Assembly (NCBI GenBank): GCA_017472685.1
Contig: JAFUOO010000008.1
Span: 6,154 to 70,153, forward strand
DNA from: Clostridia bacterium
GTDB taxonomy: Bacteria; Bacillota; Clostridia; UMGS1883
Reading direction: 5' to 3'
Length of the DNA stretch: 64,000 nucleotides
Shown: one piece after another, positions 46,828-60,565 of the stretch
How the letters are laid out: the number at the start of each line of letters is the position of its first letter
Numbering within the stretch: the stretch's first letter is position 1
Notes under the pieces: generated by a model
Told to the model about the DNA's origin: nothing
Databases searched by the model: none
Seen by the model: the letters and a program-made list of their open reading frames with translations, nothing else
Made by a program: the position numbers and the translations under genes

Positions 46828-47199
46828 ATGAAGAATATATCCATTGGGGATGCAGAATTAGAAATAATGAAAGTTATTTGGAAAGCAAAAGCACCTATAA
46901 CTTCTCTTGATATTGGAAAAGAAGTAGAAGATAAGGGTTGGAAAAAGACAACCATTGCAACCTTTCTTACAAGGCTTGTAGAAAAAGGTGCTTTGTCTGC
47001 AGACAAGCAAGGTAAAATGTATTACTACACACCTTTAATATCAGAAAAGGAATACAGAAAATCACAGACCAAAAATCTTATTAAGACTTTATATAATGGT
47101 TCTGTTAGAGATTTTGCAGTATCTTTCTTTGAAGAACAGAAATTATCAGACAAGGACATTCAGGAACTAAAGGCAATCTTTGAAGATAAGGGGGAATAA
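46828..47199 (+). CDS. BlaI/MecI/CopY family transcriptional repressor
   Basis: Winged-helix N-terminus (ELEIMKVIWKAKAPITSLDIGKEV...KKTTIATFLTRLVEKG) and a typical length of 123 aa. Confidence 0.85.
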   Translation: MKNISIGDAELEIMKVIWKAKAPITSLDIGKEVEDKGWKKTTIATFLTRLVEKGALSADKQGKMYYYTPLISEKEYRKSQTKNLIKTLYNGSVRDFAVSFFEEQKLSDKDIQELKAIFEDKGE

Positions 47200-47202
47200 T
47201 CT

Positions 47203-49362
47203 ATGGCACAAATATTTACAGCACTTCTTCTTACTTCTGGGATAGGCACAGCTCTTGCTCTGATACTAACTTTATTAAAACCTATAACAAGGAAAGTCTT
47301 TTCTGGTGGTTGGCATTATTATATGTGGTTGGTTGTACTTCTGGTAATGGTCTTGCCTATAAGATTAAACCTACCTGAAAAACCTGTAACTACACCACCT
47401 ACTTCTGAAACAGTCACAATTACAGATAATCAGGCCGAAAATACTGAAACACCTATAATTGATACACAACCAGAACAGATTATACAAGCACAGCCTACAC
47501 AACCTGAAAAAGTATCAACAATTCAGGCTATAAAGAACTTTTTAATTACTAATCTTCAATTATTCTCTTTAATCTGGTTAATGGGAGCAGTATTGCTGTT
47601 CCTGATAAAGATTGTAAGTTATCTGGTGTTCTTGATTAAAATACATAAACATTCAGAAATCATATCTTGTCCAGAAGTAAAGGCATATACAAACAGAAAA
47701 ATTAAAACAAGGGTAAGTGATACAATCTGCTCACCCCTTATGATAGGTATAATCAGACCTACATTATTACTACCTAAAACAGATATTACACCAGAACAAT
47801 TACATAATGTTTTGGCTCATGAAATGATACACTTAAAAAGAAATGATATTTTGTATAAGTGGTTTGTCAGCATAGTCAAATGTGTTCATTGGTTTAATCC
47901 TGCAATTTACTTTATCAGTAAGCAGATTAATATTGATTGTGAAATATCCTGTGATTTAGCAGTAGTAAAGGAAATGGATGAACAACAGGAAAAAGGATAT
48001 GTAGAAACCATATTATCACTTTTAACACATAACAACTCAAAGGCTATCCCCCTGACTACAGGAATGACAGGAAACAAGGAAACATTAAAAAGGAGGTTTA
48101 CTATGATTAAGAAAAGAAAGAACATAGGAAAAGTAACACAGATTTTATCAACAGTTTTAGCAGTTGTAATTTTAGTAACAACAGTATTTACAAGTGGTGT
48201 GTTAGCAACAGAAATATTAAAGAAAGACAATTCAGAAAATATATTTGATATAGAAGTTAGACATAATGGTTATCTTGTGGCATTAACAAATAAGCCATTT
48301 TTTGAAAATAATGTATTGTATTTACCATTAAGAGAATTACTTGAAAAAACAGGTCTTGTGGATAATGAAGATAGTTATATAAAATGGGATAATGGGAAAA
48401 TTACACTTTGTATAACAGAGGGGGATAATGCTCCAAACTATGATAGTACAGGAAATCAAATTGGAACTAAACCCATAATTATACAATACTATTATGGACT
48501 TGAAATAGGAAAAGCAGAGTATATATTAAATCCAGAAGGAACTTTGCCTGAACAAAGACATCATTTAAGTCTAAGTAAGGATATGACTAATGCTCCTATC
48601 CTGAAAGATAGTATTACATATATTCCCTATGAATATGTTGAATATATGGTAAATAAAGTTATGAGAAATCATGAGATAACTATATGGGATATTACTAATA
48701 TATCAACAAAAAACATAGATAACATAGATAATGCTGAAGATATGACCTATGAAGATATAAGAAGTTTACAAATATCTGTTGATAATGGACACTTCCCTTG
48801 GAGATTAGACCCTGAACAGGTTATAATGGCTTTCTTGTCTGGTAAAGGAATAAGTGTTAGCAATATAAGGTTGCCTGAAATTACAAATGATAAATTAAAA
48901 TATGTAGATGGTAATATTGAAATAGAGTTATTTAAGCCAATAGACAAGAGTGAAAAAGGTATCTGGATAGTAAAGACATTTCAGAAGAAAGGTAATGCTA
49001 TAATACAGGAAGTGCATTTTTATGAAAGAACTCCTGCACAGGCTTGGATAAACAAACAAGAGGATGGGTGGTACAAAGTTCCACAACACATAAGTGCTGT
49101 TTTACAATATGAAGGAGATAAACCACATTCAATATCAGCATATTTTACTCCAGCAGGAACAAATATGGAGAGTGAAAAAAAGTTAGTTGGTCAAAAAGTG
49201 CTTGTCACAACAGATACAAGTATATCCCAAACACCAGCAAGATTTCCTTCATTAGATATAGACTTTTCTAAAGAAGATACATTAGGTCATTTGTGGTTTG
49301 TCTTTAATTTTGAAGATGGTTCAAGTATAGTGTCAGAAATATACAATATGTATATTGAGTAA
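47203..49362 (+). CDS. BlaR1/M56-family membrane metalloprotease-type signal transducer with a non-canonical extracellular domain
   Basis: Zinc motif AHEMIHLKRND within the M56 region and several TM helices. A Cu-amine-oxidase-N-like stalk segment follows (VALTNKPFFENNVLYLPLRELLEKTGL). I could not recognise a penicillin-binding sensor domain by eye. Confidence 0.8.
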   Translation: MAQIFTALLLTSGIGTALALILTLLKPITRKVFSGGWHYYMWLVVLLVMVLPIRLNLPEKPVTTPPTSETVTITDNQAENTETPIIDTQPEQIIQAQPTQPEKVSTIQAIKNFLITNLQLFSLIWLMGAVLLFLIKIVSYLVFLIKIHKHSEIISCPEVKAYTNRKIKTRVSDTICSPLMIGIIRPTLLLPKTDITPEQLHNVLAHEMIHLKRNDILYKWFVSIVKCVHWFNPAIYFISKQINIDCEISCDLAVVKEMDEQQEKGYVETILSLLTHNNSKAIPLTTGMTGNKETLKRRFTMIKKRKNIGKVTQILSTVLAVVILVTTVFTSGVLATEILKKDNSENIFDIEVRHNGYLVALTNKPFFENNVLYLPLRELLEKTGLVDNEDSYIKWDNGKITLCITEGDNAPNYDSTGNQIGTKPIIIQYYYGLEIGKAEYILNPEGTLPEQRHHLSLSKDMTNAPILKDSITYIPYEYVEYMVNKVMRNHEITIWDITNISTKNIDNIDNAEDMTYEDIRSLQISVDNGHFPWRLDPEQVIMAFLSGKGISVSNIRLPEITNDKLKYVDGNIEIELFKPIDKSEKGIWIVKTFQKKGNAIIQEVHFYERTPAQAWINKQEDGWYKVPQHISAVLQYEGDKPHSISAYFTPAGTNMESEKKLVGQKVLVTTDTSISQTPARFPSLDIDFSKEDTLGHLWFVFNFEDGSSIVSEIYNMYIE

Positions 49363-49380: not shown

Positions 49381-49692
49381 ATGAGAAAAATTATATACTT
49401 TATACCTGCATTACCCTTTACTATTTTATTCATTTATTTTGCCATTGGAACTTCAATAGAAGTAACACCTATTGCCTGGATAATGAATATCCTACTTATA
49501 TTATCAGGAATGTTAATGTGTAAAAGTAAGTGGTGGGGTTGTTGCTTTGGAGTGATTTCAGGTGCTATATTGATATATATGGGGCTACAAGAAACAGGTC
49601 AGATTTTCAAGGAATATATTTTAGGTGTTCCACTTGTTATATTTTATATTATATGTGGTTTTGTGGTTGCAAAGCATAACAAGAAAAAGTAG
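49381..49692 (+). CDS. small membrane protein (103 aa, about 3 TM helices)
   Basis: AAAGGTGG RBS. It is hydrophobic throughout and lies 18 nt after the blaR1-like stop. Confidence 0.6.
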   Translation: MRKIIYFIPALPFTILFIYFAIGTSIEVTPIAWIMNILLILSGMLMCKSKWWGCCFGVISGAILIYMGLQETGQIFKEYILGVPLVIFYIICGFVVAKHNKKK

Positions 49693-49707
49693 GACTTTGT
49701 ATAGATA

Positions 49708-49733
49708 GGGTGTGTTCCGCACGGAACACACCC
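49708..49733 (+). terminator. terminator of the cargo operon
   Basis: GGGTGTGTTCCG ca CGGAACACACCC followed by TTATAATT. Confidence 0.7.
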
Positions 49734-49760
49734 TTATAATTCTTGTTACACAAATGTAAT

Positions 49761-49789
49761 TTGACATAAGACAATATATATGATAATAT
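49761..49789 (+). promoter_or_regulatory. near-consensus sigma-A promoter with no ORF behind it
   Basis: TTGACA (49761-49766), 17-nt spacer, TGaTAATAT (49781-49789). Confidence 0.6.
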
Positions 49790-49795
49790 GTAGTT

Positions 49796-50370
49796 GATGA
49801 AGTTTACATAAATTTCCTCTTGTAGTGGGATTAAGTGCTGCAATTGGAGTTTGTGAGAATATTCTTTCATCCATCGCTTATAAACTACCCAAGCTCATAG
49901 CGGGCATGATGCACCCTTGGGAGCAATAGGCTTATAAGGATGATTAGTGTCGATTTTTACGGAGTGTATATATCCGGTATGTTTACTTTGAAGCCCGATA
50001 GTTTTAATGGTGCCCAGTAATGGAAAGTAGCCGGGGCAGACGCAGGCGAAATTCATCATTCTGTACTATCCCACAGAATAGGGTAAAGTAAGTCTGTCTT
50101 GCCATCGGACACGCTATGCGTGATCGGGACCGATGTGTAAACGAAACGATTTCTCGATAACCCGTGAACGGGGGTACTATGCCCTTAAGAGAACTAAATG
50201 TATTTTATGGAGATGGAAAACCTACTACCCTTTTGGGTCTGAATGAAAAACCGATTTGGTTTTTAAGGAGATGAACACGCAAAGGGAGTTTTGTGCCCTT
50301 TTTGCAGATGTGGAGAAAAATTCATATATTGGAGATATGAAAACACGGTCAATATTTGACGGTGTTTTTT
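49796..50370 (+). ncRNA. candidate structured non-coding transcript of about 575 nt (family unassigned)
   Basis: No plus-strand ORF of 60 aa or more lies between 49692 and 50553. Many local and long-range helices are visible (listed in the finding). An intrinsic terminator AACACGGTCAA tat TTGACGGTGTT + TTTT lies at 50342-50370. The segment is more G+C-rich than the rest of the element (by eye). Confidence 0.45.
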
Positions 50371-50552
50371 CGTACTTATTTAAGGAAAACAGCGGTTTTG
50401 CCTTTGGGGTAATTTTTTAAAGGGGGGTGATGCTTATGTTATATGGAAAACAACACAAAGTCTTTTATAATATTTCAACTTATAACATAAACATAGCAAA
50501 TTTAACAACCACCTCCAAATGCAAAATCACATAGAAAACATAGGTCTATATA

Positions 50553-51017
50553 ATGGGTAGAATTTATCCTGAAGTTGAAAAACTTCTCGATGAATTGAAA
50601 TCACGGCAAGTTTTTGATGCCGATTTCAATCGTCATTTACCCATACGCAAAACTTTTCATGGAGTAATAAATCAATTATTGGAGATGAAACATTGCAATT
50701 CTGTAATGTTTTGTGAAAAGACAGATTTAAACAAAACAATATTCAGCGATTTAAAGAAAAAAGACTACAAACCTATTAAAAGAATAGTAGTTACTATCTG
50801 TATCGGCTTAAAGCTCGAATATTCAATATCAGAAGAATTATTAAGATTAGCAGGTTATGAATTAGTATTGACAAGGGAAATCGACTATGCTTATTATCTG
50901 TTTATGACAGAGTACCGACATCCCGATATGTCAATAGAAGATTATAATAAATTACTTGAGCATTGGGGTTTTGATGAAAAAGACTTTTTAGGCTCATTGA
51001 CGAGGAAAACAGAATAA
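50553..51017 (+). CDS. hypothetical protein, possibly an XRE-like HTH regulator of the element
   Basis: 154 aa. An HTH-like segment (MFCEKTDLNKTIFSDLKKKDYKPIKRIVVTICIGLKL) is present. The SD is weak. A terminator follows at 51025-51063. Confidence 0.5.
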   Translation: MGRIYPEVEKLLDELKSRQVFDADFNRHLPIRKTFHGVINQLLEMKHCNSVMFCEKTDLNKTIFSDLKKKDYKPIKRIVVTICIGLKLEYSISEELLRLAGYELVLTREIDYAYYLFMTEYRHPDMSIEDYNKLLEHWGFDEKDFLGSLTRKTE

Positions 51018-51255
51018 AAATTATTATGCCGTGTGTAGATTTTACGCACGGCATATTTTTTTTGCAAAAACAGATAATTTGGCAAATTACCAAAAGTAAC
51101 GGTTTTATGCGGTTTCTCATACTGGATTAAATTGAAACCCCTTGAAAAATGGGGATTTGTTGGTAATTTCGCAAATGTTTGTAAGACAAAAAAATTGTGT
51201 TATCATATACTCGTAATCCGGATTTACAATATTTTACGAGGAGGAATTTTTTAAT

Positions 51256-51573
51256 ATGAAAATTCAAGATTTAATAATTGATCCCAAGAGTTTAGGAAGT
51301 AAGCTATGGCTTGTTGATGTTGCACCTGTGTATGAGTATAAGGACAACAGGAGAACAGAAAACATCACCGGCTATCGCTACACGGTTGCAATGCCCGAAA
51401 AAGGTCTTGATAAAATCAACATCAGGATTGACGGAAAGCAGCTTGTAGAAAAACCGAATGGCTATGCGGAAGTTACATTCGCAGGCCTTGAACTGTCATT
51501 GTATATGATGAATAATCAGCCACAGGTCAAAGCAACTGCAACAGGTATAACATTAGTTAATAACAAGGCTTAA
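51256..51573 (+). CDS. small protein, possibly DUF961/HelP-like (helicase processivity factor of ICEBs1/Tn916-type elements)
   Basis: GAGGAGG RBS, 105 aa, beta-rich. Its position directly upstream of the Rep and FtsK-like genes mirrors Tn916 orf22/23 and ICEBs1 helP. The sequence assignment is tentative. Confidence 0.4.
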   Translation: MKIQDLIIDPKSLGSKLWLVDVAPVYEYKDNRRTENITGYRYTVAMPEKGLDKINIRIDGKQLVEKPNGYAEVTFAGLELSLYMMNNQPQVKATATGITLVNNKA

Positions 51574-51626: not shown

Positions 51627-51676
51627 CAAGCCATAAGGGTTAGTATTACCCTTATGGCTTGAATGTAGCATGTAGC
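51627..51676 (+). promoter_or_regulatory. candidate rolling-circle origin / oriT: stem-loop with TAGTATTAC apex plus tandem iterons
   Basis: The 14-bp perfect stem pairs CAAGCCATAAGGGT (51627-51640) with ACCCTTATGGCTTG (51648-51661). TAGTATTAC sits at 51641-51649. ATGTAGC occurs twice in tandem at 51663-51676. The Rep ATG lies at 51695. Confidence 0.6.
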
Positions 51677-51694
51677 AGAAAGGTGGTCGATTAT

Positions 51695-52636
51695 ATGTCA
51701 AATTCACAATCACGCAAATGGACTTTGGTAATAAATAATCCGCTTGAATGTGAGTTTACACACGAGCATATATGCGAAATATTGATGAAGTTTTTTCCTG
51801 ACTATTTCTGTATGGCTGACGAGATTGCAAAAACGGGAACTTTTCATACTCATATTTTCATATATTCCCATTCCCCGATACGATTTTCAACGCTGAAAAA
51901 TCGATTCCCAATTGCTCATATTGAAAAAGCTATCGGAAGCGCAAAACAAAATCGTGATTATATATTAAAATCGGGCAAATGGGAAAATAATGAAAAATCT
52001 GAAACAAGTATTGAGGGCAGTTTTTACGAGTACGGCACTTTGCCAAAGGAACGGGATGAGAACAATCCCAAAATGAGCAAACTGATTGAGAATATCCGTG
52101 ACGGAAAGCAGACAACCGAGATTATAGATGATTCCCCCGAATTTGCTTTTCGCATCCGTGATATTGATGCACTCCGTCAGGTGCTTAATTCCGAAAAGTA
52201 TTTAAGTGAAAACAGAGATTTATATGTAACATATATTTTCGGTGCAAGCGGAACGGGAAAAACCAGGAGTATATATCAAAAGCACGATGCGAAAGAAATT
52301 TGCAGAATAACAAATTACCGAGCAGGCAAAGGAATAAATTTTGACGGATATTCGGGTCAGGATGTTTTGGTGTTTGAGGAATTTAATTCACAGATCCCCA
52401 TTGAAGAAATGCTGAACTATCTTGACATTTATCCTCTAAATCTTCCGGCAAGGTATAACGACAGAACAGCGTGCTTTACAAAGGTATATATCACTTCTAA
52501 CATTCCTCTGTCAGAACAATACAAGGATGTGCAGATTTATCATCCTGAAACTTGGAACGCATTTTTAAGAAGAATACATAAGGTTTTGGAATACCACAAG
52601 GATGGCGGCATTACGGAAAGGAGTGCAAAGGTATGA
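51695..52636 (+). CDS. HUH endonuclease-SF3 helicase Rep (CRESS-DNA-virus-like replication initiator / putative IME relaxase)
   Basis: Motif I WTLVINN, motif II HTHIFIY and motif III YILK (Tyr codon at 51959-51961). Walker A GASGTGKT, Walker B VLVFEEF, motif C ITSN and FLRRI follow, all in canonical order. ATG 51695 follows AAAGGTGG. Confidence 0.8.
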   Translation: MSNSQSRKWTLVINNPLECEFTHEHICEILMKFFPDYFCMADEIAKTGTFHTHIFIYSHSPIRFSTLKNRFPIAHIEKAIGSAKQNRDYILKSGKWENNEKSETSIEGSFYEYGTLPKERDENNPKMSKLIENIRDGKQTTEIIDDSPEFAFRIRDIDALRQVLNSEKYLSENRDLYVTYIFGASGTGKTRSIYQKHDAKEICRITNYRAGKGINFDGYSGQDVLVFEEFNSQIPIEEMLNYLDIYPLNLPARYNDRTACFTKVYITSNIPLSEQYKDVQIYHPETWNAFLRRIHKVLEYHKDGGITERSAKV

Positions 52637-53952
52637 ACAGACAAGATAAATATATTTTAGAAAGCAAAACAAGATTGAAATATCAGTTTTTAAGATTAAA
52701 GACAGGTATTTATGAAGTAACTCATAAAAAATTATACTCCATAATTGCAGTTACATACATACTTGTTGCTTTGCTTATATGGGTTATATCAAGAGTAAAT
52801 GCAAATACAGAAACAGCAGATATATTTTCATTATTCAATATAGTTGTATTTCAGCTTTTATATCCGCTTTATGCGGTTGCCGGATTTATCGTTATGCTGA
52901 TTATGATAGGAACTCCTAAAGGTGCAAAATCCATAAATGAAAATCTGTGGAGAATCGGTCTGACAAATCACGCAGCAGAATCTCCCCTGTTACTTCGCAA
53001 GTATAGACAAGACAACGAATTTGATATTACAATTATGGAATTTGAGCCTAACGGCATACCTCTTTCAGAATGGCAGGACAAACAGGAACGGATTGAAACT
53101 GCATTAAATGTGCATATCATAAAATTTGAGCAAGGCACAAGCAAAAGACGGATTTTGTTATACACCGTATCAGGTGATGAAGGATTACCCAAAACTGTTT
53201 ACTGGAAGGAAAAATATTTAAGTGATGAAGATTTTACACTTATTTTTGGTTACAGTATGACGGGACAGGTCAATATAAACCTTGCTAAAATTCCTCATAT
53301 ATTGCTTGGTGGTTCGACAGGTTCAGGTAAAAGTGTACTGCTTAAATTACTCATTATGCAATGTATTAAAAAGGAAGCGGATGTATTTATTGCAGACTTT
53401 AAGGGCGGTGTTGATTTTCTTCCCGAATGGCACGAAATGTCATATATCATAACAGAAGAAAATACCCTGCTTGAAGTTTTAACAGAGCTTGTAAATGAAT
53501 TAGAGAACAGAAAACAGGTGCTCAGAAAATACGGTTGTGCAAACATTGGCGAATACAACAAGGTGTATGCAAACAAGATGAAAAGAATTGTCTTTGCCTG
53601 TGATGAGGTTGCAGAGGTTTTGGATAAAACAGGTCTTTCAAAGGATGCAAAAGAGCTTGTAACACAAATTGAGGGTAAACTCTCTATAATTGCAAGACAA
53701 GGCAGGGCATTTGGAATACATCTGATTTTAGCAACACAAAGACCGGATGCAAATATCTTAACAGGGCAAATACGAAACAACATTGATTTCAGAGTATGCG
53801 GAAGAGCCGACAATGTATTATCTCAAATCATACTTGATAATACAGAGGCAGCAGACAAAATTCCAAAGGAATCACAAGGCTTGTTTATCACGCATGATGG
53901 GGTTGTATTTCAAGGTTATTTATTTGATGAAAAGGCTGTTTTCGTGGAATAA
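52633..53952 (+). CDS. FtsK/SpoIIIE-family DNA translocase / TcpA-like coupling protein
   Basis: Two N-terminal TM helices, Walker A GGSTGSGKS, Walker B IVFACDE and the ATQRP motif. Confidence 0.85.
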   Translation: MNRQDKYILESKTRLKYQFLRLKTGIYEVTHKKLYSIIAVTYILVALLIWVISRVNANTETADIFSLFNIVVFQLLYPLYAVAGFIVMLIMIGTPKGAKSINENLWRIGLTNHAAESPLLLRKYRQDNEFDITIMEFEPNGIPLSEWQDKQERIETALNVHIIKFEQGTSKRRILLYTVSGDEGLPKTVYWKEKYLSDEDFTLIFGYSMTGQVNINLAKIPHILLGGSTGSGKSVLLKLLIMQCIKKEADVFIADFKGGVDFLPEWHEMSYIITEENTLLEVLTELVNELENRKQVLRKYGCANIGEYNKVYANKMKRIVFACDEVAEVLDKTGLSKDAKELVTQIEGKLSIIARQGRAFGIHLILATQRPDANILTGQIRNNIDFRVCGRADNVLSQIILDNTEAADKIPKESQGLFITHDGVVFQGYLFDEKAVFVE

Positions 53953-53966
53953 AGGATGTGGCGAAT

Positions 53967-54170
53967 ATGAAAAATACAAAATATGTTCCGCCGTGGGAAA
54001 AGTCAAATCTTACACTTGAAGAAGCTGCAGCCTATTTTGGAATCGGAATAAACAAATTGCGAGAAATTACAAACGATAAAAATTGTAAATTTGTTTTATG
54101 GGTTGGCAGTAAAAGACTTATAAAGCGGAAACTGTTCGATGAGTATATCGAAAAACAATACTCAATCTAA
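53967..54170 (+). CDS. excisionase-type small HTH DNA-binding protein
   Basis: 67 aa with LTLEEAAAYFGIGINKLREIT, lying immediately upstream of the integrase. ATG 53967 has better SD spacing than the track GTG at 53958. Confidence 0.7.
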   Translation: MKNTKYVPPWEKSNLTLEEAAAYFGIGINKLREITNDKNCKFVLWVGSKRLIKRKLFDEYIEKQYSI

Positions 54171-54244: not shown

Positions 54245-55498
54245 ATGGCAGTTGAAAGAAGAAAAGACACAAAAAATCGTGTTTTAAAAGAAGGTGAATA
54301 CCAGAGAGCAAACGGAACATTTGAATACAAATGGCGAGACAAACGAGGTAAGCGACATTCTATATACGCAAAAACACTTGAAGAACTGCGAGAAAAAGAG
54401 ATTGATGTACTTCGGGATGTGTTAGATGGTATAAGAGCTGAAAAAAGCGATTTGACAATCAACGATTTATTTCATTTGTGGGTGCAGCTTAAACGAGGAT
54501 TGAAAGAGAACACTTTTTCAAACTATAAATATATGTACACACAATTTGTTGAGGGCGATTTTGGTGAAACGCTTATTTCAGAGTTAAAGCGGTCAGATGT
54601 AAGGGCATTTTACAATTACCTTGCAGACGAACAACATTTGAAAGCTAATACCATTGACAACATACATACTGTACTTCATCAGGTGTTGGAATTAGGTGTC
54701 GAGGATGATTATTTGAGATATAATCCATCAGACAACGCATTAAAAGAATTACGGAAAGCACATAACAATGGTTCACCAAAAAGACGGGCATTAACAATTC
54801 CCGAACAAAACTTGTTTGAAGAATTTTTGAGTGAACAAGGGCAATATCATAAATGGTATCCTATTTTTGTGGTTCTTTTATGGACAGGAATGAGAGTGGG
54901 AGAAATAACGGGATTGCGTTGGTGTGATATTGATTTGGAGAATGAAACAATAAGTGTAAATCATACTTTGGTATATTTCAGCAAAGGCAAAGCACAAGGA
55001 TGTTCATTTGCAATCAATACACCCAAAACAGAGGCAGGCAGACGGACAATCCCAATGCTGCCGAAAGTCAAAGAAGCCTTTTTGATGGAAAAACAATTCC
55101 AAGAAGAAATTGACTTGAAATGTACTGTAAGCGTTGACGGATATACGGATTTTATTTTCATCAATCGTTTTGGTGGTGTGCAACATCAAGGAACACTTAA
55201 CAAGGCATTACGGAGAATTATCCGTGACTGTAATTATGAAGTGTTAGACAGGGGACATATCGAAAATACTGTTACACTACCCCGTTTCAGTAATCACTCG
55301 CTCAGACATACATTCACAACACGAATGTGTGAAGCCGGTGTGAATATCAAAGCAATGCAAGATATTTTAGGTCATGCGGATGCAGAAACAACAATGGATA
55401 TTTACGCCGAAGCAACAAAGGATTTGAAGCGTTCCGAAATGATAAACTTTGACGAATACTTTAACAATCAAAAAGTCATTCAATCTGGTACAAACTAA
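54245..55498 (+). CDS. tyrosine-type site-specific recombinase (integrase)
   Basis: SAM-like N-domain and a catalytic domain with TGMRVGE (Arg), HSLRHTF and LGHADAETTMDIYAE (His...Tyr). The stop codon abuts the right direct repeat. Confidence 0.9.
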   Translation: MAVERRKDTKNRVLKEGEYQRANGTFEYKWRDKRGKRHSIYAKTLEELREKEIDVLRDVLDGIRAEKSDLTINDLFHLWVQLKRGLKENTFSNYKYMYTQFVEGDFGETLISELKRSDVRAFYNYLADEQHLKANTIDNIHTVLHQVLELGVEDDYLRYNPSDNALKELRKAHNNGSPKRRALTIPEQNLFEEFLSEQGQYHKWYPIFVVLLWTGMRVGEITGLRWCDIDLENETISVNHTLVYFSKGKAQGCSFAINTPKTEAGRRTIPMLPKVKEAFLMEKQFQEEIDLKCTVSVDGYTDFIFINRFGGVQHQGTLNKALRRIIRDCNYEVLDRGHIENTVTLPRFSNHSLRHTFTTRMCEAGVNIKAMQDILGHADAETTMDIYAEATKDLKRSEMINFDEYFNNQKVIQSGTN

Positions 55499-57759: not shown

Positions 57760-57821
57760 TTCCCCAACATTCCGAGGAGAGCAACCCTCTCCTCGGAGGG
57801 GTTAACCTTAACGAAAAAAGA

Positions 57822-57935
57822 ATATTCTTCGGGGCGGGGTGTGATTCCCCACCGGCAGTAACAGTCTGCGACCCACTTTTGTGGCTGATGAGGTGCAATT
57901 CCTCAACCGACGGTATAGTCCGGATGGAAGAAGAC
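57822..57935 (+). promoter_or_regulatory. FMN riboswitch (RFN element)
   Basis: TCTTCGGGGCGGGGTGTGATTCCCCACCGGCAGTAA ... GGTGCAATTCCTCAACCGACGGTATAGTCCGGATGGAAGAAGA matches the RFN consensus. Confidence 0.9.
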
Positions 57936-57974
57936 AAAAAGAAAATCGTAAAGATTTTCGTTATTTTGCTTACA

Positions 57975-60477: not shown

Positions 60478-60565
60478 TGGTGCCCGAGACCGGAATCGAA
60501 CCGGTACGGCTTTAAGGGCCGCAGGATTTTAAGTCCTGTGCGTCTGCCAGTTCCGCCACTCGGGC
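60478..60565 (-). tRNA. tRNA-Leu (anticodon UAA)
   Basis: The reverse complement folds as a cloverleaf. Acceptor GCCCGAG/CTCGGGC, anticodon stem CAGGA/TCCTG with loop CTTAAAA, a long variable arm, T-arm ACCGG-TTCGATT-CCGGT, and an encoded CCA. Confidence 0.9.

Follow-up and report, generated by a model that had tools for sequence, protein, structure and literature searches.

Large regulatory RNAs of mobile elements

Tn916 carries canT, a cis-acting and orientation-specific processive antiterminator RNA of ~450 nucleotides (nt) (Wirachman & Grossman 2024, PMC11658703). A large antiterminating RNA, conAn2 of pLS20, has been described for Gram-positive conjugative plasmids (PMC8191782), as has a zipper-type attenuator, cATT (PMC13401043). 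Weinberg et al. (2017) reported G+C-enriched plasmid motifs like GEBRO, for which sequence alone cannot separate RNA from single-stranded DNA (ssDNA) (PMC5737381). Here, we describe a unit on the + strand of a 64,000 nt stretch of DNA from a Clostridia bacterium (contig JAFUOO010000008.1), which is referred to as the window. The unit extends from a promoter to a terminator (49761-50370) and resides on an integrative (mobilizable) element of ~9 kb. It is very probably the gene for a structured, transcribed-looking non-coding RNA that represents a new family without Rfam entry. With respect to its function, we favour, at a probability of roughly 0.45, a cis-acting leader which controls read-through of downstream terminators in analogy to canT and conAn2.

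The window RNA resembles canT in several respects. Both are large multi-stem RNAs (~340-450 nt), both are carried by a Firmicutes integrative element with a Tn916-type integrase (Int) and an excisionase (Xis), and both are located 3′ of a promoter and 5′ of several intrinsic terminators which insulate replication and transfer genes (PMC11658703). However, the two have no detectable sequence similarity and they differ in position: canT is found close to the right end, immediately 5′ of xis, from where its effect reaches over the junction of the circular form, while the window RNA heads a module with regulator and rep genes. The function of canT has been shown experimentally, while that of the window RNA is proposed. 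Conversely, the fold of the window RNA has comparative support, while that of canT is only predicted.

Like conAn2 and cATT (PMC8191782, PMC13401043), the window RNA would be a long structured leader; these RNAs have ~300-456 nt and are found at the start of transfer operons on Gram-positive mobile elements. They govern the passage through terminators, as we propose for the window RNA, and share with it poor sequence conservation between elements and, presumably, host dependence. In contrast to the window RNA, the neighbour of which is a Cro/CI-type helix-turn-helix (HTH) protein encoded downstream, conAn2 works together with a dedicated protein, ConAn1, which is encoded just upstream. A zipper-type long stem as in cATT was not found in the window RNA.

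A conserved promoter-to-terminator unit without coding capacity

The unit and its immediate surroundings have the following features.

49707-49734, + strand: strong intrinsic terminator (12 bp stem and T-run), which closes the cargo genes directly 5′ of the RNA promoter (insulator)
49761-49789, + strand: sigma-70 promoter, TTGACA-17-(TG)TAATAT, from a consensus scan
49796-49942, + strand: 5′ domain of the RNA
49943-50025, + strand: variable linker; in the alignment, sequence conservation is lost here, with hairpins that differ in sequence from lineage to lineage
50026-50193, + strand: 3′ domain of ~170 nt, the most conserved module
50205-50340, + strand: lineage-specific 3′ extension, absent from L002, L028 and L032, and homologous to short leaders of L013 and L015
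50279-50305, + strand: second terminator-like hairpin, of the H4/H5 type (GCAAA-GGGAG...GUGCCC-UUUUUGC), within the window-clade extension
50342-50370, + strand: intrinsic terminator T1, a hairpin of -10 kcal/mol with T-run

The promoter is followed by a G+C-enriched stretch free of open reading frames (ORFs), which closes at T1. This frame had been noticed in a sequence-only reading of the region, and its parts hold up when homologs are compared. The -35 and -10 hexamers, their position and their distance are kept in all loci which we class as type A, and the spacer sequence diverges. T1, which was missed by our consensus scan due to one internal mismatch, is kept in L002, L005, L010, L015 and L023 with compensatory changes (e.g. 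AGCACGG/CCGTGCT), including relatives with different RNAs between promoter and terminator. The terminator-promoter junction at the 5′ side (49707-49734/49761-49789) is also found in L010. G+C content, described as visibly elevated, is up to 0.44 in the unit as compared to ~0.30 in both flanks. The proposed unit size of ~575 nt had to be revised: while the frame from promoter to terminator stands, the conserved unit covers ~400 nt (49796-50193). A transcription start at ~49796 is predicted from the promoter, and we infer that transcription actually occurs.

On the + strand of the unit there is no ORF with at least 60 amino acids (aa), as had been stated before, and the largest one has 54 aa and a TTG start. 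Stop-free stretches in the homologs code for unrelated peptides, have no start codon and differ in frame among near-identical copies. A conserved small protein across the region, named beforehand as an observation that would speak against an RNA, was looked for and none was found; the small-protein reading is ruled out by the absence of any conserved reading frame.

A search with Rep, the replication protein of the element, resulted in 53 related elements from genomes of gut Clostridia. By nhmmer, 15 of these have the RNA region, which is located 1.3-1.9 kb upstream of Rep without exception and does not change strand. A two-block pattern scan detected no viral contigs and 9 metagenome contigs, two of which are true homologs; the other 7 look like chance matches and match neither the RNA profile nor any Rfam family. 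Seven clusters of homologs of p105, a protein encoded upstream of Rep, were looked up and gave ~65 more elements; these contributed 4 diverged copies of the 3′ domain and no full RNA. Altogether, homologs with constant strand and place are present in ~20 related elements. There was no match when the region was compared by BLAST to phage and plasmid collections. The conserved core corresponds to 49786-50202 of the window and T1 follows at a distance of 0-40 nt, except that ~140 extra nt (50205-50340) intervene in the window, L001 and L054. L002, which has no such extension, has a homologous terminator directly 3′ of the core. The positions of promoter, start site and T1 are kept even across elements with Rep proteins that are just 63-68% identical.

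The comparison with Rfam 15, which had been suggested together with the sequence-only reading, matched no family. Its models, including ROOL, GOLLD, raiA, HEARO, OLE, GEBRO and group II introns, gave no hit over 49600-50600 at E<=10, no family matches the RNA unit when the whole window is searched at gathering score, and none is found at E<=0.5 in the diverged homologs L010, L028, L032, L038, L059 and L118.

A two-domain fold supported by covariation

The helices and invariant segments of the RNA are listed below, all on the + strand.

49796-802 with 49865-871, + strand: helix P1, 5′ domain
49807-811 with 49851-855, + strand: helix P2, 5′ domain
49820-827 with 49836-843, + strand: helix P3, 5′ domain
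49872-879 with 49936-942, + strand: helix P4, 5′ domain
49885-892 with 49917-929, + strand: helix P5, 5′ domain
50033-041 with 50092-100, + strand: helix H1, 3′ domain
50058-064 with 50073-079, + strand: helix H2, 3′ domain
50101-108 with 50130-138, + strand: helix H3, 3′ domain
50110-114 with 50118-122, + strand: helix H3a, 3′ domain
50123-129, + strand: invariant bulge AUCGGGA, 3′ domain
50151-155 with 50189-193, + strand: helix H4, weak, 3′ domain
50158-168, + strand: invariant AACCCGUGA, 3′ domain
50171-176 with 50180-185, + strand: helix H5, weak, 3′ domain

For the 5′ domain, RNAalifold was applied to a MAFFT alignment of 13 sequences and gave six helix segments, which are reported as helices P1-P5. 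The start of P1 coincides with the predicted transcription start. In this domain, 96.7% of the cells are paired and 12 pairs have changed on both sides, while sliding the 3′ partner by 1-3 columns as a control gave 35-43% and 0-2 pairs. Helices of the 3′ domain were set by hand from the alignment and were converted into covariance model R1, the 22 hits of which (17 distinct) were realigned to give alignment A4. Here, 89.6% of the cells are paired (31-48% in slid controls) and 23 of the 39 pairs have changed on both sides, 20 of them in H1, H2, H3 and H3a. The weakest helices are H4, which is 66% paired, and H5 with one covarying pair. It must be considered that A4 has been fitted to model R1 and that there are only ~8 independent lineages. 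For all measures but one, the observed value was reached by no more than 1 of 500 shuffles; the exception is the count of further pair types, which is not above shuffles in either domain. In total, ten helices have covariation support.

The ratio of G-U to A-C counts is 44:7 and 95:14, and the fold is therefore assigned to the + strand. Several stretches are unpaired and invariant (AGUAGCC, GGCGAAAU, AUCGGGA and AACCCGUGA). Folding of the single sequence was not relied on because z-scores of the minimum free energy (MFE) are modest as compared to shuffles (-2.6 on the + strand and -2.1 on the - strand for the whole unit, -1.2 for the 3′ domain) and because the MFE fold differs from the comparative one. 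The case therefore rests on the comparison of homologs. A long-range helix between AUGGAGAG and the 3′ arm of the terminator, which RNAalifold suggested, was set aside, since terminators of the window type cannot form this pairing.

Seven helices had previously been read by eye, and five of these are confirmed by covariation: CATC..CTT with AAG..GATG, CCCAA with TTGGG, ATTCTGT with ACAGAAT, CATCGG with CCGATG, and CACGC with GCGTG. CCCG-UGAA-CGGG (50161-50172) is not supported, its 3′ arm not being conserved; the G-run pairs with 50180-85 instead, forming H5. The other two, ACCC/GGGU and AAAAACC/GGTTTTT, are outside the conserved region, in the ~140 nt stretch 50205-50340 which is common to the closest relatives only. 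Of the two earlier interpretations, that of a large structured RNA is supported by the conserved promoter and terminator, the ten covarying helices, the G-U preference on the + strand and the lack of a coding signal.

A slot for exchangeable RNA modules

In L010 and L004, the 3′ domain alone is found directly 3′ of the promoter and the whole 5′ domain is absent. In L038 and L118, the 3′ domain is diverged and is joined to an unrelated 5′ part rich in G+C. The frame of promoter and terminator is kept in L005, L015, L023 and L098 with other inserts, several of which end in a GGG..UAUGCCCUUUU hairpin like H5. The promoter-to-terminator frame is thus a slot for interchangeable RNA modules. L023 has a Rep 97% identical to that of the window, yet it has a different RNA, and its homolog of p154, the HTH protein encoded downstream, is just 48% identical. 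Together with the slot variants, this means that RNA and HTH gene form a mosaic, exchangeable part of otherwise near-identical elements, as is expected of a regulatory or host-adaptation module.

Other unrelated structured-looking RNAs occupy the slot in L005 (4500-4745), L023 (4350-4720), L098 (1360-1790), L118 (1210-1750) and L073 (2520-2830). A motif, GTGCGTGGGGTTCCCGAGG...GCCTTAGCATAC, recurs among them, and those of L005, L023 and L118 have no Rfam match. They are candidates for further RNA families.

The cargo genes upstream of the slot vary among the elements compared (window, L063-L066, L098-L102, L093) and comprise BlaI/BlaR1 in the window, an MmeI-type restriction-modification enzyme, SMC/AAA ATPases, and a DEAD/ResIII helicase. 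In L098-L102, type II-A-like CRISPR repeats together with Cas2 and Csn2 genes are located directly upstream of the slot. The RNA type co-varies with none of the cargo genes upstream and with none of the proteins encoded downstream. Just upstream of the slot promoter of L063 (2395-2465), there are ~7 tandem copies of the 10 nt repeat TATGTATTGC, which may be iterons or regulator binding sites.

Terminators and genes downstream of the RNA

The RNA is followed by these features.

50430-50534, + strand: small ORF of ~34 codons with a strong Shine-Dalgarno (SD) sequence at 50423-31
50553-51017, + strand: p154, diverged Cro/C1-type HTH regulator, the first sizeable gene 3′ of the RNA
51025-51055, + strand: strong intrinsic terminator T2 (14 bp stem and T8), 3′ of the p154 gene
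51256-51573: p105
51659-52636: Rep with Viral_Rep and superfamily-3 helicase domains (CRESS-like)
52633-53952: FtsK-like ATPase
53958-54170: excisionase (Xis)
54245-55498: Tn916-type integrase (Int)

The order of promoter, RNA, T1, small ORF, HTH gene and T2 is found in seven type A loci; T1 after the core and T2 after the regulator gene occur in 7 of 7 with successful detection. A simple consensus scan of these seven loci revealed no promoter-like site of conserved position between T1 and T2. In L028, L032 and L040, the same type of scan found none between the RNA promoter and p105. A transcript of the window would meet three consecutive terminator-like hairpins ahead of the small ORF. In most homologs, H5 is followed by a U-run.

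The SD sequence of the small ORF (GGAGGTGNT, 50423-31) pairs with the 3′ part of the ORF itself (ACCACCTCC, 50508-16). This anti-SD (NNCACCTCC) is 16S-like (16S-like ACCACCUCC) and is located 70-115 nt downstream of the SD, summarized as ~90 nt. The pairing covaries in ~40 distinct loci (e.g. GGGGGTATG with TATACCCCC in L023), and the encoded peptide is poorly conserved. Apparently, the pairing is an element of translational control which precedes the HTH regulator.

Among 42 members of the p154 family, 11 match the Pfam family HTH_26 (Cro/C1-type). The AlphaFold2 model of p154 has a pLDDT (predicted local distance difference test) value of 92, and the best Foldseek matches are Xre-type HTH proteins, although these are weak (E 0.45-2.5; probability >0.9 over ~70 residues). 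p154 had also been considered as an RNA-binding antiterminator protein; this was rejected as it is a Cro/C1-type HTH protein. PDB sequence searches with p154 and p105 were uninformative.

A cis-acting leader as favoured function

We favour a cis-acting leader. Transcription from the promoter at 49761-49789 would start at ~49796, and the RNA would fold into its 5′ and 3′ domains and run into T1. The folded nascent RNA would act in cis, either on the transcribing polymerase or on folding of the terminator, and would set the share of transcripts that pass T1, and possibly T2, into the regulator and the replication and transfer genes. Read-through would reach the regulator and, in some lineages, also the rep operon. 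Both action in cis and action on termination are suggested by position: in seven homologous loci, the RNA is located ahead of two terminators and an intervening promoter is not detectable. The SD/anti-SD pairing is a further RNA-level feature on the same strand, next downstream. The conserved order of promoter, RNA, T1, small ORF, HTH gene and T2, the lack of a conserved promoter and the SD/anti-SD pairing lead us to prefer a cis-acting leader. Further arguments for it are the constant transcription signals, the covarying + strand fold which begins at the predicted start, the missing reading frame, the mosaic nature of RNA and HTH gene, and the precedent of canT and conAn2.

Several observations weigh against this. 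When the type A profile was compared to Tn916 in pCF10 (L092) by nhmmer --max, nothing was found in the 452 nt canT region, and the sole match to pCF10 is elsewhere on the opposite strand with an E-value of 4.6. Our promoter scan is crude. In the window clade, p105 has a plausible promoter of its own at 51179-51206, so that Rep expression may not depend on read-through there. The slot of L063 contains little beyond promoter and terminators and has no large RNA. We found no alternative antiterminator pairing with T1 that would be shared by all lineages: the T1 5′ arm of AACACGG-type terminators forms its best duplex with the 3′ strand of H3, while for other terminators the partner is at a non-homologous site. 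Finally, a free-standing small RNA gene would be an equally good fit for a structured RNA that is directly followed by a terminator.

If the RNA is a cis-acting leader, our failure to find a conserved antiterminator pairing leans, as a weak indication, to an action on the polymerase rather than by a simple alternative hairpin. A more far-reaching idea, which we consider speculative and rather unlikely, is that the ~170 nt 3′ domain is a self-sufficient portable module which binds and reprograms RNA polymerase. This would be processive antitermination by RNA only, and integrative elements would exchange the module, either alone or along with accessory domains, as an adaptation to the polymerase of each new Clostridia host.

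Alternative explanations

The alternative that survives best, possible although on the whole unlikely, is a free-standing structured RNA which acts in trans. It would have its own promoter, would be released at T1, and would act on a target in the host or the element or bind a protein, with the downstream genes being independent. Promoter, structured RNA and terminator do form a compact unit, the many invariant unpaired stretches suggest a tertiary fold or a binding surface, and the missing antiterminator pairing fits as well. Also, ROOL, GOLLD and other large RNAs from mobile elements are free-standing. However, between T1 and the small ORF or the regulator no promoter is detectable in any lineage. 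The lack of a partner gene which co-varies with the RNA means that no target is suggested, and the slot can be nearly empty in relatives, as in L063.

We consider it improbable that the region is a single-strand origin (sso), the other earlier interpretation. In this case, the + strand DNA displaced by the HUH-type Rep would fold and recruit RNA polymerase or primase for synthesis of the complementary strand. The structure is indeed specific for the + strand, and 1.4 kb downstream, the replication origin (ori) has its hairpin (loop TAGTATTAC) on this strand as well. The + strand would therefore be displaced or transferred and the region would be exposed late, as in a plasmid sso. As in ssoA-type origins, the fold is strand-specific and precedes the nick site of an HUH Rep, and the exchange of cassettes between related elements at the slot resembles rolling-circle plasmids, which swap sso types. 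Such motifs cannot be separated from ssDNA by sequence alone (Weinberg et al., PMC5737381). The window RNA is G+C-enriched and structured like GEBRO, ARRPOF and PAGEV, which have ~220-350 nt and are found near rolling-circle or other plasmid origins (PMC5737381); however, it matches none of their Rfam models, is part of an integrative element, and has a promoter and a terminator which are conserved. Against an sso stand the conserved duplex promoter and the intrinsic terminator on either side of the structure, neither of which it would need, and the G-U pairs, which are invariant at helix ends. Origins of the ssoA type keep the CS-6 hexamer (TAGCGT/A) in a terminal loop. The TAGCGG which had been compared to the CS-6 of ssoA is located in the P5 loop and is not conserved, as homologs have CAGCGG, GGACGG or TTGCGG; the 5′ domain to which it belongs is dispensable (L010, L004). 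Plasmids pE194 and pUB110, which carry ssoA and ssoU, respectively, have no match to the region by nhmmer at E<=10, and blastn gave just chance matches of 10-23 nt.

Even less probable is a riboswitch-like leader with the 3′ domain as aptamer, the occupancy of which would switch between G-run pairings (ACCC/GGGG versus GGGG/GCCC) and thereby set termination. Highly conserved unpaired nucleotides are present in a multi-helix junction, pairings around 50161-50185 are mutually exclusive, a U-run follows H5 in most homologs, and terminators are located downstream. However, the genes that follow are regulators of a mobile element and not metabolic, the switch helices H4 and H5 scarcely covary, and an aptamer of ~170-400 nt would be large.

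A divergent member of a known large RNA family (ROOL, GOLLD, raiA, HEARO, OLE, GEBRO or a group II intron fragment) can practically be dismissed, since only size class and mobile-element context speak for it while Rfam 15 gave no match to the window or to six homologs, and the kinship to ROOL and GOLLD that had been considered thus fails: size class, occurrence on Firmicutes mobile elements and many conserved unpaired nucleotides are shared, but there is no covariance-model match, the RNA is not beside tRNAs or in a prophage, and it has the position of an operon leader.

The host element

The host element is a low-G+C insertion directly 3′ of lysS. Its genes upstream of the RNA are as follows.

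46828-49362: BlaI/BlaR1-like cargo
49381-49692: membrane protein of 103 aa

Repeats of 11 nt (TTTACGACCA) are found at both ends of the element, at 46637-60 and 55497-531, and are flanked by a 26 nt direct repeat (TTCCCCACAATG...) at 46569-94 and 55633-58. They probably represent arm sites of the integrase and duplicated att sites, which delimit the ~9 kb element 3′ of lysS. Host DNA to the right of the element contains an FMN (flavin mononucleotide) riboswitch (57821-57939, + strand) and a tRNA gene (60481-60565, - strand).

In all related elements, p105 is encoded directly upstream of the ori hairpin and Rep, with 47-97% sequence identity. It has no match to Pfam, NCBIfam, PHROG or PDB sequences and could be an accessory origin-binding protein. 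At 51629-51677 (+ strand), overlapping the start of the Rep gene, there is a match to the Rfam family 'ssNA-helicase RNA'. This is a perfect 13 bp hairpin with TAGTATTAC in its loop, the circovirus-type nonanucleotide, and it was found in every related element scanned. It is most simply explained as the DNA nick site (ori/oriT) of Rep on the + strand rather than as an RNA.

Implications

The window RNA is a new candidate among the few large bacterial RNAs which Rfam does not cover, and the nearby Rfam 'ssNA-helicase RNA' motif is most simply a circovirus-type DNA origin hairpin. The RNA antiterminators canT and conAn2 are known only from genetics and have no reliable structure because there are too few alignable relatives. 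For the RNA family described here, the fold is backed by covariation, the minimal module has ~170 nt, and variants with swapped domains occur naturally, so that structure-function studies on RNA-controlled termination in conjugative and mobilizable elements become directly testable. Should the 3′ domain prove to be a portable module for antitermination, it would stand for a new class of antiterminator RNA with a defined structure and would be the first of these for which a structure from comparative analysis is available. By the elements themselves, genes for beta-lactam sensing, restriction-modification and CRISPR are moved between gut Clostridia.

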